Part shown: positions 24,443 to 27,119 of the stretch, in pieces | Layout of the letters: each line of letters begins with the position of its first letter | Numbering within the stretch: position 1 is the stretch's first letter | Source of the DNA: Escherichia coli | Lineage (GTDB): Bacteria; Pseudomonadota; Gammaproteobacteria; Enterobacterales; Enterobacteriaceae | DNA: 64,000 nucleotides | NCBI RefSeq assembly: GCF_003334335.1 | Contig: NZ_QOWQ01000008.1 | Reading direction: 5' to 3' (one strand) | The notes under the pieces: model-generated | The model's input: only the letters and a program-made list of their open reading frames with translations | Databases searched by the model: none | Told to the model about the DNA's origin: nothing | Translations under genes and position numbers: made by a program

Positions 24443-24678
24443 GATAGTGCCCTTTTTCTGAGATGGAAAAAGGGTGTCATTCAAAATCGACATACCTTCC
24501 TTTAAGGTATTTATTTGCCCAATACATATATTGAGATTTAACTCATAATTACTTCCTAAAGTGTAATATTTTATTTTTTAATATATACGCCTACAATTTC
24601 CTGGAGTAAATAAATAACAATTAACAAGCATAATATTGCCATTGATAAAATAGCATGCCATAAAAGGACTTTTCAGGG

Positions 24679-25857
24679 ATGAGTAATATTGTTTACCTGA
24701 CAGTAACGGGAGAACAACAAGGAAGCATCTCCGCAGGTTGTGGGACTTCTGAGTCTACAGGTAATCGTTGGCAGAGCGGGCATGAGGATGAAATATTTAC
24801 ATTCTCACTCTTAAATAATATTAATAATACGGGGCTTGGTTCACAGTTCCATGGTATAACATTTTGTAAATTAATTGATAAAAGCACTCCATTATTTATT
24901 AATTTCATTAACAATAATGAACAATTATTTATGGGATTTGACTTCTATCGAATAAATAGATTTGGTAGATTGGAAAAGTATTATTATATACAACTAAGAG
25001 GCGCTTTTTTATCGGCTATTCATCACCAGATCATTGAAAACCAACTGGATACAGAAACAATAACTATTAGTTATGAATTTATCCTCTGTCAACATCTTAT
25101 CGCAAATACCGAGTTCAGCTATTTGGCACTCCCTGAAAATTATAACCGTTTGTTTTTACCAAATTCAAAAAACCAAACAAATAATCGTTTCAAAACGTTA
25201 AACAGCAAAGCTATTGGCAGGCTACTTGCTGCTGGTGGCGTATACAATGGGAACATTGAAGGATTCAGAGATACTGCGGAAAAACTGGGTGGAGATGCAA
25301 TAAAAGGCTATGATCAAATACTAAATGAAAAAACAGCGGGCATAGCGATAGCAACAGCATCTATTCTTTTAACAAAGCGTTCTAATGTTGATACATATAC
25401 AGAAATAAATAGTTACTTAGGCAAACTTAGAGGTCAACAAAAACTTCTTGATGGTATAGACATAATAGAAATAATATACATTAAGAGACCTTCAAAAGAC
25501 TTAGCTAACTTACGAAAGGAGTTTAATAAAACTGTAAGAAAAAATTTTCTTATCAAACTTGCAAAAACCTCCGAAGCATCTGGAAGATTCAACGCCGAAG
25601 ACCTTTTAAGAATGAGAAAGGGCAATGTTCCTCTAAATTATAATGTTCACCATAAACTATCTCTAGATGATGGTGGTACTAATGATTTCGAAAATTTAGT
25701 ATTAATCGAAAACGAACCATATCATAAAGTTTTTACTAACATGCAATCACGAATAGCTAAGGGAATATTAGTAGGTGAAAGCAAAATCACTCCCTGGGCC
25801 ATTCCATCTGGCTCAATTTATCCTCCCATGAAAAATATTATGGACCACACAAAATGA
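24679..25857 (+). CDS. yhhZ: Hcp-like protein with C-terminal HNH nuclease domain (Hcp-ET type polymorphic toxin)
   Basis: ORF track 392 aa; N-terminus MSNIVYLTVTGEQQGSISAG... is Hcp/TssD-like; C-terminus NVHHKLSLDDGGTNDFENLVLIENEPYHKVF fits an HNH HH...N...H signature; AT-rich. Confidence 0.85.
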   Translation: MSNIVYLTVTGEQQGSISAGCGTSESTGNRWQSGHEDEIFTFSLLNNINNTGLGSQFHGITFCKLIDKSTPLFINFINNNEQLFMGFDFYRINRFGRLEKYYYIQLRGAFLSAIHHQIIENQLDTETITISYEFILCQHLIANTEFSYLALPENYNRLFLPNSKNQTNNRFKTLNSKAIGRLLAAGGVYNGNIEGFRDTAEKLGGDAIKGYDQILNEKTAGIAIATASILLTKRSNVDTYTEINSYLGKLRGQQKLLDGIDIIEIIYIKRPSKDLANLRKEFNKTVRKNFLIKLAKTSEASGRFNAEDLLRMRKGNVPLNYNVHHKLSLDDGGTNDFENLVLIENEPYHKVFTNMQSRIAKGILVGESKITPWAIPSGSIYPPMKNIMDHTK

Positions 25858-26348
25858 TGACTAAAACCCAAATAAATAAATTAATAAAAATGATGAATGA
25901 TTTAGACTATCCATTTGAAGCACCGCTCAAGGAATCATTTATTGAAAGTATAATCCAAATAGAATTTAATTCTAATTCAACTAATTGCCTGGAGAAGTTA
26001 TGTAATGAAGTTAGTATTCTTTTTAAGAATCAACCTGATTATCTTACTTTTTTAAGAGCAATGGATGGATTCGAAGTTAATGGATTACGATTATTTAGCC
26101 TCTCGATTCCAGAACCTTCAGTTAAAAACCTTTTTGCCGTAAATGAATTTTATAGAAATAATGATGATTTCATAAACCCTGATCTACAAGAACGGTTAGT
26201 GATCGGGGATTATAGCATTTCAATATTTACTTATGACATTAAAAGTAACTTTTTTGAAATTAGAGATAATATTGGCACAGAAAATATATTCAGTTCGTTT
26301 AGTGATTTCTCTTCATTCTTAAACGAAATCATGGACAGTTGTTCATAA
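25854..26348 (+). CDS. yrhA: putative cognate immunity protein of YhhZ
   Basis: ORF track 164 aa; start overlaps yhhZ stop by 4 bp (ATGA); acidic, AT-rich; position after the toxin is typical of immunity genes; family assignment not verified. Confidence 0.6.
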   Translation: MMTKTQINKLIKMMNDLDYPFEAPLKESFIESIIQIEFNSNSTNCLEKLCNEVSILFKNQPDYLTFLRAMDGFEVNGLRLFSLSIPEPSVKNLFAVNEFYRNNDDFINPDLQERLVIGDYSISIFTYDIKSNFFEIRDNIGTENIFSSFSDFSSFLNEIMDSCS

Positions 26349-26442
26349 TAATCAAAAGGAAACAAAAATCATTGTAAACCATGCCATCTTTTTAGAGATT
26401 ACCAGCAGAAAATTCCTTGTTCGAAATTTAGCAGTGCAAGCT

Positions 26443-26598
26443 ATGGAAAAACTTACAACGGAACTACACTCCTTAAGTGAGATGGACCGAAGACATGTAG
26501 TCTCTATTTTAGCCGAAATAGCTAATGGCTATGATGATTTTAATGACATGTTGATTTATTTAGAATTTTACCCGAATCATAAGATTCTGATATCTTAA
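26443..26598 (+). CDS. yrhD: small ORF (51 aa), possible immunity-gene remnant
   Basis: ATG..TAA, MEKLTTELHSLSEMDRRHVVSILAEIANGYDDFNDMLIYLEFYPNHKILIS; below ORF-track length cutoff; symbol from memory of K-12 annotation. Confidence 0.4.
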   Translation: MEKLTTELHSLSEMDRRHVVSILAEIANGYDDFNDMLIYLEFYPNHKILIS

Positions 26599-26797
26599 AT
26601 AAGAAAATCCCGTTCGACGTTCTGAAAAAGAAATCATAAAATATTAGCAGATACTTATTTCGTGACTATATCTTATCCGATGAACTTTTTTCAAAACCAG
26701 CATTTAATAATATCTTTGACGAAGATGAACGCGTCTTTGCTCAATGTATCACACAGGAATAATAATATAACACTCAACAATAATATTTATTATAATT

Positions 26798-27082
26798 ATG
26801 ATTACTTATCACGACGCATTCGCGAAAGCGAACCATTACCTTGATGATGCAGATCTCCCGGTCGTCATTACTCTACATGGACGCTTTAGCCAGGGCTGGT
26901 ATTTCTGTTTCGAAGCACGAGAATTTCTCGAAACTGGAGATGAGGCCGCGCGCTTAGCTGGTAACGCACCTTTTATTATTGATAAAGACAGTGGTGAAAT
27001 TCATTCTCTGGGAACGGCAAAACCGCTGGAAGAATATCTACAGGATTACGAAATAAAAAAGGCTACCTTCGGCTTGCCCTGA
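26798..27082 (+). CDS. yrhB: small protein YrhB (94 aa)
   Basis: ORF track 94 aa; AT-rich islet; recognised as K-12 YrhB. Confidence 0.8.
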   Translation: MITYHDAFAKANHYLDDADLPVVITLHGRFSQGWYFCFEAREFLETGDEAARLAGNAPFIIDKDSGEIHSLGTAKPLEEYLQDYEIKKATFGLP

Positions 27083-27089
27083 CAAAATA

Positions 27090-27111
27090 GCCCTCTTCCC
27101 ACGAAGAGGGC
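27090..27111. terminator. hairpin between convergent yrhB and ggt (probable bidirectional terminator)
   Basis: GCCCTCTTC-CCAC-GAAGAGGGC, perfect 9-bp stem; T-rich tract on the ggt-sense side. Confidence 0.5.
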
Positions 27112-27119
27112 CGCTAACC

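Follow-up and report, generated by a model that had tools for sequence, protein, structure and literature searches.

The AT-rich yhhY–ggt interval of Escherichia coli: a probable polymorphic type VI effector–immunity cassette

Why does an Escherichia coli chromosome carry, between the ordinary genes yhhY and ggt, an AT-rich block that seems to encode a secreted toxin, in a strain background reported to have no system that could deliver it? We addressed this question for positions 24443–27119 of a 64,000-nucleotide stretch of E. coli DNA (RefSeq assembly GCF_003334335.1, contig NZ_QOWQ01000008.1; hereafter the window), an interval that corresponds exactly to the gap between the stop codon of yhhY (24442) and that of the convergent ggt (27120, minus strand). 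An earlier note on this DNA had proposed an accessory islet with a toxin–immunity layout, and the genes it listed, yhhZ, an open reading frame (ORF) overlapping it by 4 bp, a 51-codon ORF and yrhB, are all present and arranged as it described. We are confident that the interval is a polymorphic effector–immunity cassette belonging to type VI secretion systems (T6SS), yhhZ-yrhA-yrhD-yrhB. Our own observations concern the domain identities, the fold of YrhA, conservation across genera, the breakpoints of module exchange, relic immunity genes and the pattern of selection. The module itself is already known, since it is named, annotated and, in what is very probably an orthologue, experimentally characterised. 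What we add (a cross-genus exchange site with its breakpoints, the relic nature of yrhD, one new pseudogene and a cognate toxin for yrhB) refines the annotation and does not describe a new system.

Carrier, nuclease tip and coupled partner protein

The gene yhhZ (24679–25857, plus strand) encodes a protein of 392 amino acids in three parts. Codons 1–147 (24679..25119, plus strand) match the T6SS tube protein Hcp/TssD. The TIGR03344 profile gives 115.4 bits against a cut-off of 58.9 (E 2e-33; residues 1–147 on profile positions 1–161 of 167), PF05638 (T6SS_HCP) matches at E 5.7e-11, and PDB searches return Hcp3 (3he1, E 5e-11), Hcp and Vibrio cholerae Hcp (up to E 7e-9). These matches mark residues 1–147 as a bona fide Hcp/TssD domain; secretion is reported in the literature, for the orthologue only. 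Codons 148–229 (25120..25365, plus strand) form a conserved linker or pre-toxin region, which an alignment of relatives defines by the pattern …LNSKA.GRLLAAGG.YNGN..GFR...EKLGG….

The third part, codons 230–392 (25366..25857, plus strand), encodes a basic domain (pI 9.5) that we predict to be a DNase of the HNH/His-Me finger type. Residues H324, H325, N335, N339 and H349 are invariant in 14/14 YhhZ homologues, down to 41% identity. A profile of this domain matches Cas8f-HNH and the DNases of pyocin S2, colicins E7 and E2 and pyocin AP41 (E 2e-4 to 1e-3), and the Pfam HNH model (PF01844) is found in 14 of the 14 homologues at E<=0.1 and in 5 of them at E<=0.001. In the AlphaFold model the domain has a predicted local distance difference test (pLDDT) score of 80–95 and contains a beta-beta-alpha element at 321–360, with the strands 321–325 and 340–344 and the helix 345–360 at 85–95. 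The Hcp carrier (115 bits with TIGR03344) and the HNH tip (invariant HH-N-N-H and matches to DNase profiles) of the earlier note are both borne out. Others have placed the protein similarly: YhhZ is the type of His-Me finger group 32 in Jablonska et al. 2017 (PMC5714182) and was called by Blondel et al. 2009 an 'evolved Hcp' whose HNH domain is degenerate. A word-indexed search with the C-terminal domain alone returned 44 matches, all from close enterobacterial relatives and none a fusion to an Rhs, PAAR or CdiA carrier.

Immediately downstream lies yrhA (25854–26348, plus strand), a putative immunity gene of the ETI1 type that encodes 164 amino acids and shares a 4-bp ATGA with yhhZ, an overlap that couples its translation to that of the toxin gene. 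YrhA is acidic (pI 4.31, versus 9.5 for the toxin tip) and matches the NCBIfam family NF038335 with 122 bits against a cut-off of 55. YrhA itself matches no Pfam model even at E<=10, SUKH models included; members of its family do so at E<=0.001, with SMI1_KNR4 found in 7/35, SUKH_6 in 5/35, SUKH_5 in 3/35 and any of these in 7–13/35. The AlphaFold model of YrhA (pLDDT 88.7, predicted template modelling score 0.86) finds as its top PDB folds YobK (2prv), Lin2918 (2icg), BF1740 (3d5p), Knr4 (6qbq) and Syd (3ffv), the first four with a Foldseek probability of 1.00 and template modelling (TM) scores of 0.5–0.6, and the family profile matches 2icg at E 9e-4. We take the structures 2PRV, 2ICG, 3D5P, 6QBQ and 3FFV to belong to the SUKH superfamily. 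Model and distant homologues together identify YrhA as a divergent protein of the SUKH (SMI1/KNR4) fold, in agreement with the small, acidic, coupled immunity gene of SMI1/KNR4 type that had been suggested. The NF038335 branch is small and enterobacterial: a search of 1.84 billion proteins yields just 61 representatives at E<=1e-3. A YrhA homologue of 164 amino acids directly follows every HNH-type toxin, in E. coli, Citrobacter koseri, Citrobacter freundii and Enterobacter, and follows none of the other toxin types at the loci examined.

Two side observations concern this gene pair. Proteins of 552–556 amino acids are predicted in a few metagenome and Sequence Read Archive assemblies (P0002 and P0003, 556; P0005, 552); 556 is the sum of YhhZ (392) and YrhA (164), and one added A in the run CACAAAATGATG (25848–25860) would join yhhZ and yrhA in frame. 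Such fused proteins point to an error in sequencing or else to a slippage variant that is rare. Further, PMC3309015 assigns to E. coli yhhZ-yrhAB the 'conversion of methionine to cysteine', a function that seems to come from confusion with yrhA/yrhB of Bacillus subtilis, unrelated genes of the same name, and that should not be propagated.

A pair of this kind has been studied under other names. Hcp-ET1 (AAF13_24945) and ETI1 were reportedly described by Ma et al. in Virulence in 2017 (8:1189), a study that we know through secondary sources only. In the later literature (PMC6730261, PMC6099711, PMC5471719, bioRxiv 2024.03.05.583533), Hcp-ET1 of strains STEC004, O104:H4 C227-11 and 55989 is an orphan Hcp-HNH protein with the ETI1 gene directly downstream; it is reported to degrade target DNA, to be delivered by T6SS2 and to be neutralised by ETI1. 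The O104:H4 strain 2009EL-2050 carries yhhZ-yrhA-yrhD-yrhB at the yhhY–ggt site, with YhhZ identical to that of the window at 390/392 positions and YrhA at 162/164, and the only Hcp-HNH protein of O104:H4 is the one called Hcp-ET1 in the literature. The '99.4% identity' given for ETI1 (bioRxiv 2024.03.05.583533) equals 163/164 and therefore fits a protein of 164 amino acids. YhhZ is thus very probably, if not provably, Hcp-ET1, and the description of the locus as poorly characterised in the earlier note was overstated, because experiments have been done on Hcp-ET1/ETI1, very probably its near-identical orthologue.

How would such a cassette work? In strains that carry T6SS(-2), YhhZ would act as a 'specialised' Hcp, in which the tube subunit (1–147), the linker (148–229) and the colicin-like HNH DNase (230–392) would be built into or onto the Hcp tube, fired into neighbours and set to degrade their DNA. 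YrhA, translated from the overlapping ATGA, would bind the DNase and neutralise it inside the producing cell and in its kin. For the DNase activity, the binding of the toxin by YrhA, the dependence on T6SS-2, the silencing by H-NS and the absence of a T6SS beyond the window we draw on the literature or on inference. In the present strain, which resembles K-12 without IS1E, the toxin would be undeliverable and its AT-rich DNA probably silenced by H-NS. K-12 and B strains are reported to have no T6SS genes (PMC6730261) and the window holds none, so the toxin presumably cannot be fired; yhhZ and yrhA are listed among the H-NS-associated 'promoter islands' (PMC3661553), which suggests that the DNA is silenced. 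At most the immunity genes would be useful here, as a protection against armed neighbours.

Toxin types and displaced immunity genes at the yhhY–ggt junction

Two groups can be told apart among the closest YhhZ homologues, one 61–73% identical over the full length and the other 64–76% identical over the first ~58% only, with unrelated C-termini. From the genomic context of eight homologues, we found that the yhhY–ggt site (yhhX–ggt in Salmonella) holds Hcp toxins in Escherichia, Citrobacter and Salmonella. An Hcp-HNH toxin is followed in C. koseri by the 164-aa YrhA, and in one C. freundii allele by YrhA, an 85-aa protein, an Imm35 protein and an 83-aa protein. Another C. freundii allele carries a toxin of 417 residues (Hcp417) with an 86-aa, an Imm35 and an 83-aa gene behind it; C. 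rodentium has Hcp402 with a 101-aa gene, a further Citrobacter has Hcp382 with an 86-aa gene, and Salmonella enterica has Hcp370 with genes for 84 and 78 amino acids. Finally, an Hcp-Gln_amidase toxin precedes Imm35 and 83-aa genes in C. portucalensis, and an Imm35 gene in an E. coli metagenomic contig (L017). Six types of toxin tip therefore occupy this one locus, each with a downstream gene of its own. Identity among these toxins is 64–93% over the N-terminal 229 residues, whereas their tips are unrelated. Across the linker motif the alignment stays invariant as far as S228-I229, beyond which it diverges abruptly. With a constant N-terminus, a variable tip, an adjoining immunity gene and extra immunity cassettes, the locus has the features of a polymorphic toxin system in the sense of Zhang et al. 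2012.

The E. coli contig L017 records one exchange at nucleotide resolution. In a blastn comparison with the window it is 98.55% identical from yhhX to codon 219 of yhhZ (25335), after which there is no homology; a 489-bp Gln_amidase tip replaces window positions 25336–26793, and homology, now at 92.8%, returns 4 bp ahead of the start codon of yrhB. The breakpoints of the swap thus lie at 25335/25336 on the left and 26793/26794 on the right.

This swap identifies YrhB as the probable immunity partner of the displaced Hcp-Gln_amidase toxin. The gene yrhB (26798–27082, plus strand) encodes 94 amino acids, of which residues 5–83 match positions 1–85 of the 85 in the Imm35 model PF15567 (E 4.6e-23). 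In L017, whose yrhB homologue is 83% identical, and in C. portucalensis (L015), the stop codon of the Hcp-Gln_amidase gene (PF15644) abuts the yrhB homologue. No Hcp-Gln_amidase toxin is present in the window, so yrhB is an orphan here.

Between yrhA and yrhB we found the remains of two further genes. The annotated 51-codon ORF yrhD (26443–26598, ATG at 26443) lies within a longer stretch (26356..26598, plus strand) that we read as the relic of a 5'-truncated immunity gene. The 84-aa protein that follows the 370-aa Hcp toxin of Salmonella aligns in a tblastn search to 26356–26580 (40% over 75 aa, E 2e-13), which makes yrhD the 3' two-thirds of such a gene. No in-frame start for yrhD exists upstream of 26434, YrhD has no match in the domain and family libraries, and in E. 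coli Nissle 1917 its ATG start codon is lost and an internal stop is present. On this evidence yrhD is a relic and not a real small-protein gene. The second, at 26601..26759 (plus strand) in DNA annotated as intergenic, is a putative pseudogene of another immunity gene, detected by tblastn: the 85/86-aa proteins of C. freundii and the 101-aa protein of C. rodentium, encoded after the 417- and 402-aa Hcp toxins respectively, align there (41.5% over 53 residues, with E values from 1e-11 to 4e-10), and the aligned stretch contains a stop codon. A 60-codon ORF at 26662–26844, considered as a gene, was rejected; it has no family match and overlaps both the pseudogene and the yrhB start in another frame. 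NCBIfam offered nothing useful for the small proteins in immunity position. The orphan immunity genes that the earlier note had suspected can therefore be named: YrhB is an Imm35 protein, and yrhD and the spacer behind it are relics of genes that are intact in Salmonella and Citrobacter.

Behind YrhA, the HNH allele of C. freundii retains an undamaged 85-aa gene with 86% identity to the gene in immunity position of the 417-aa allele, and we read it as a displaced immunity gene. In addition, the unit of exchange is not tied to Hcp or to this site. In Enterobacter cloacae (L020, 8001–9392) the linker and HNH module is joined to a 78-residue non-Hcp N-terminus in a protein of 292 amino acids, 64% identical to YhhZ residues 171–382, followed by a YrhA homologue (56%) at a different site near ytfL; it is the sole non-Hcp carrier that we found. 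PHROG families 31266 and 14497 match YhhZ residues 168–382 at E 1e-56. Carrier and phage-family matches together suggest that linker, tip and immunity gene move as a unit independently of Hcp. A second site, near ppa, holds related Hcp toxins, for example Hcp-colicin D with a colicin immunity protein.

We observed two additional genes in Citrobacter. One, of 294 codons, stands between yhhY and the Hcp toxin gene (L006 8845–9729, L008 6845–7729, L014 and L015), and its product has a weak match to the PA3715 family (58 bits, below the cut-off of 70); the other, of 83 codons, ends the array and is 39% identical to the 78-aa gene of Salmonella. Neither has an E. coli counterpart.

On balance we favour, with some reserve, the view that yhhY–ggt is an ancient, integrase-free exchange site for Hcp toxins, at which swaps within the linker leave the previous immunity gene behind, and which yields in K-12 a dated fossil stack: HNH/YrhA first, then the Salmonella-type relic yrhD, the Citrobacter-type pseudogene and the Imm35 gene yrhB, the last still protective against Hcp-Gln_amidase attackers from other genera. 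New tip and immunity modules would enter by recombination, with the Hcp and linker region as the left-hand site and either the immunity array or the ggt flank as the right-hand one, and with no integrase involved. The genes downstream of yrhA would be the remains of earlier occupants, namely the truncated yrhD, the dead stretch 26601–26759 and the intact orphan yrhB, whose Hcp-Gln_amidase partner would have been replaced.

Distribution, decay and selection in E. coli

We surveyed the locus in 5426 complete E. coli genomes. The islet is present in 3757–3835 of them (69–71%) and yrhB in 4049–4069 (75%), and by the difference between these counts ~230–290 more genomes have yrhB than have the islet; in K71-77, which we checked singly, yrhB is the only gene at the locus. 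An O157-type allele, with a DUF4225 protein and a remnant of the yrhB 5' end, occurs in 343 genomes (6%). Direct abutment of yhhY and ggt was seen, uncounted, in ST131 and others, and ~1000 genomes (~19%) have none of the alleles listed here. The Gln_amidase allele was found in 0 genomes, and since the tip of L017 has no match in the sample it must be very rare in E. coli. Islet DNA has a median of one copy per genome and zero matches among the plasmid records of these assemblies. In O157:H7 (L002, 2154–3065 and 3700–3760) the filling is likewise AT-rich (31.8% GC) and consists of a 303-aa DUF4225 protein, which has no NCBIfam match, and a remnant resembling the yrhB 5' end. Presence and absence vary among genomes, but the locus is no islet taken up on a single occasion: it is composite, polymorphic, long-resident and shared between genera.

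Compared with MG1655 by blastn, the window is 99.96–99.99% identical over its full length, and the sole structural difference is the absence of IS1E from yrhA. The 9-bp target GACATTAAA (26235..26243, yrhA codons 128–130), which is duplicated in K-12, is unoccupied in the window, and the blastn blocks overlap by exactly 9 bp. The source is, judging from this comparison, an IS-free K-12 derivative or a pre-insertion relative, in which the toxin–immunity pair is intact. Elsewhere, IS5 in yhhZ and a delta-yhhZ-yrhA deletion arise spontaneously (laboratory evolution, topA mutants), and IS3 or ISKpn26 sits within the islet of other strains.

Ratios of nonsynonymous to synonymous substitution (dN/dS, omega) between K-12 and Nissle 1917 (phylogroup B2) are 0.38 for yhhZ, 0.27 for yrhA, 0.37 for yrhB and 2.06 for yrhD. 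Between the same strains the relic stretch 26349–26797 has the lowest identity, 92.7%, and the toxin and immunity genes have 96.5–97.9%. Pairs of Citrobacter species give an omega of 0.13 for yhhZ, 0.06 for yrhA and 0.07 for the Hcp domain; comparisons across genera show saturation of synonymous sites and an omega of 0.06–0.16. The flanks (22584–24442 and 27120–28862) are more diverged than the cassette (K-12/Nissle, L012: yhhY 93.0%, ggt 95.1%, dS 0.22–0.26 versus a cassette dS of 0.05–0.06), which could reflect recombinational spread of the cassette between E. coli lineages.

Is the cassette then simply dead in a K-12-type strain, undeliverable, silent and drifting to loss with no benefit? 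This would dispute the present function of the genes and not their identity, and it overlaps in part with the effector–immunity reading. In its favour stand the following: no T6SS genes in the window or, as reported, in K-12; a K-12 that tolerates IS1 in yrhA; the IS5 insertion and the deletion, together with IS3 and ISKpn26 in other strains; the decay of yrhD and of 26601–26759; and the absence of the islet from ~30% of E. coli genomes. The IS1 and IS5 insertions and the deletion fit a silent, dispensable module. However, yhhZ, yrhA and yrhB are full length in ~3750 of the 5426 genomes, dN/dS is 0.27–0.38 with invariant catalytic residues, and between phylogroups A and B2 the toxin and immunity genes have diverged less than the relic DNA beside them. 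Moreover, immunity genes can pay off in a strain with no T6SS. We consider a functionally dead cassette possible, and somewhat doubtful.

Several points weigh against the effector–immunity reading itself. The AlphaFold model of the Hcp part of YhhZ is poor (pLDDT 25–40) and is not used here as support, and a Foldseek search with the whole model returns Hcp structures only, with 0 nucleases in the top 50, an outcome that we ascribe to the dominance of the N-terminal domain, poorly modelled though it is. On YhhZ alone the Pfam HNH match is weak (E 0.004–0.013). The identification with Hcp-ET1 is built on secondary sources, on the synteny and near-identity in O104:H4 and on the median single copy. 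The module is kept in 70% of complete E. coli genomes, whatever their share with a matching T6SS, and the dN/dS values within E. coli come from few substitutions (11–34 per gene). Last, K-12 cells with yrhA split by IS1 at codons 128–130 and yhhZ intact are viable, which leaves three possibilities: an unexpressed toxin, a truncated YrhA that still functions, or a toxin with no activity in the cytoplasm.

That the module persists in a T6SS-less K-12 could also mean that YhhZ works independently of the T6SS, as a released nuclease similar to a bacteriocin or Usp, or with YrhA as a toxin–antitoxin or anti-phage abortive-infection pair. The Enterobacter protein with linker, HNH domain and YrhA on a non-Hcp N-terminus and the matches of linker and HNH domain to the two PHROG families agree with this, and Blondel et al. 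can be counted in its favour. Against it, PADLOC defence models match 0 of the 4 proteins, no gene for lysis or release lies at the locus, the score of the Hcp domain exceeds the curated TssD cut-off by a wide margin, purifying selection acts on this domain (the omega of 0.07 between Citrobacter species), and the secondary literature reports T6SS2-dependent delivery of the orthologue. We regard T6SS-independent action as improbable.

The composition of the block is strongly atypical. GC is 31.8% in 24443–26797 (2355 bp) and 33.6% in the whole interval, versus 53.8% in the rest of the window; 500-bp windows average 0.538 (sd 0.041) outside the interval and reach at most 0.350 inside it, and GC at third codon positions (GC3) is 0.24–0.26 in yhhZ and yrhA versus 0.57–0.63 in yhhX, yhhY and ggt. 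The low GC noted earlier is thus real. Of the ~2.7-kb low-GC block first proposed, the part up to 26797 holds and yrhB falls outside, because this gene has 45.6% GC (GC3 0.40) and is found in some genomes that have no AT-rich block; the low-GC segment stops near 26797 and not at 27119. The matching K-12 annotation of all 64 kb shows no T6SS structural gene or integrase, no phage gene is among the neighbours, and the window has no tRNA; at the borders of the block only short, AT-rich repeats at chance level occur. The negative findings of the earlier note are thus confirmed, those on T6SS genes, integrase and tRNA for the whole 64 kb. No vgrG, PAAR or adaptor gene lies beside the cassette; in each genus examined its neighbours are yhhX, yhhY, ggt, yhhA and ugp. 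The empty-site allele differs over the whole spacer, with no clean insertion scar, and the cassettes are AT-rich in every genus examined (38–43% GC).

Although the GC (31.8% versus 53.8%, GC3 0.24–0.26) and the variable presence among E. coli genomes would suit it, we reject as very improbable a recent mobile islet brought from a low-GC donor by an integrase, phage or transposon, since atypical GC is the sole island-like feature next to the missing tRNA, integrase, transposase and direct repeats, the empty site differs throughout its spacer, and in Citrobacter and Salmonella a cassette with proteins only 62–73% identical and saturated synonymous sites, AT-rich in each genus examined, is found at this very junction of core genes. 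Saturation and AT-richness in all genera point instead to long residence or to exchange within a dedicated gene pool.

The remaining features of the interval are regulatory or incidental. A hairpin at 24450..24474 (plus strand; CCCTTTTTC-7 nt-GAAAAAGGG, read from the sequence) adjoins the yhhY stop at the left edge of the AT-rich block and is possibly, on weak inference, the yhhY terminator, the consensus terminator scan giving no call there. The yhhZ leader and promoter region (24443..24678, plus strand; 29.7% GC) shows 98.5% conservation in L017, the alternative E. coli allele, and promoters yhhZp5/p7 are cited in PMC12428005; our promoter scan was uninformative in this AT-rich DNA (14 sites versus 12.7 expected). 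At the other end a GC-rich hairpin (27089..27112, minus strand; 10-bp stem with 6 GC pairs in the terminator scan) forms a terminator common to the convergent yrhB and ggt and is kept in the yrhB-only and O157 alleles. Rfam gave, in the interval, only a sub-threshold, snoRNA-like chance match (26148–26244).

Further away, the RyhB small RNA gene lies at 23739–23803 (minus strand), between yhhX and yhhY (RF00057, 83 bits against a gathering threshold of 55, E 2e-15). GC falls below 40% at just one further place in the window, 39501–40100 (~35%), which is the livK–panM intergenic region by collinearity with MG1655. The last 177 bp of ggt (27120–27296) match at 92% a 'hypothetical protein' on plasmid NZ_AP022088.1 (H40), and a query that includes the flanks has a second matching place on many chromosomes. 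The 5' part of rhsB (~61231–64000, plus strand, by MG1655 collinearity), 34 kb from yhhZ, runs past the window end; with rhsB, a strain said to lack any T6SS carries a further polymorphic toxin element of the T6SS type.

Meaning of the locus and comparison with known systems

The analysis provides testable functions for poorly described K-12 genes: yrhA would be a SUKH-fold immunity gene against an HNH DNase, yrhB an orphan immunity gene against a papain-like Gln_amidase Hcp toxin, and yrhD a relic. The AT-rich 'islet' would be explained as a long-lived recombination hotspot and not as a recent insertion. For those who work with K-12 it is of practical note that MG1655 has an intact toxin gene beside an immunity gene interrupted by IS1, and that IS-free derivatives like the window restore the intact pair. 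The module is textbook-level in the T6SS field and annotated in every E. coli genome, and its confirmation as such changes little.

Its nearest relative is the Hcp-ET1/ETI1 pair, from which, judging by the O104:H4 cassette, the cassette of the window differs in no structural respect. The host differs, and in a T6SS-less K-12 background the delivery step of STEC004 would be impossible.

The DNases of colicins E7 and E9 and pyocins S2 and AP41 share with YhhZ an HNH core with HH…N…H, which the profile of the C-terminal domain aligns over ~65 positions at E 4e-4 to 1e-3, and, like YhhZ–YrhA, these toxins pair a basic nuclease with an acidic immunity protein (Im) encoded directly downstream. However, sequence identity is very low, and YhhZ (…YHKVFT) has not kept the final metal-binding His that the colicin motif contains. 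Colicin immunity proteins have the four-helix Im fold, whereas YrhA has the predicted SUKH fold, and colicins are delivered by receptor and translocation domains and YhhZ by its fusion to Hcp. With SUKH immunity proteins such as B. subtilis YobK, YrhA shares the fold and the place, directly 3' of a nuclease toxin, and differs in that its own sequence has no Pfam SUKH match. YobK is said to have been recognised as an immunity protein by Zhang, Iyer and Aravind in 2011.

Usp of uropathogenic E. coli, with an Hcp-like N-terminus, a pyocin-type nuclease and Imu1-3, resembles YhhZ as an evolved Hcp with a nuclease tip and several small immunity genes downstream, but its toxin domain, its locus (a pathogenicity islet) and its immunity families are others.

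Orphan immunity arrays and displaced tip and immunity modules occur at Rhs, CdiA and other T6SS effector loci. As at yhhY–ggt, a constant delivery part ends at an abrupt junction, a new tip with its immunity gene is inserted upstream, and old immunity genes are kept downstream, some of them decaying. In contrast to the Rhs and CdiA arrays, the carrier at yhhY–ggt is Hcp rather than Rhs, CdiA or VgrG, the displaced genes that we found are immunity genes only, with no orphan tips, and one fixed core-gene junction is common to three genera.

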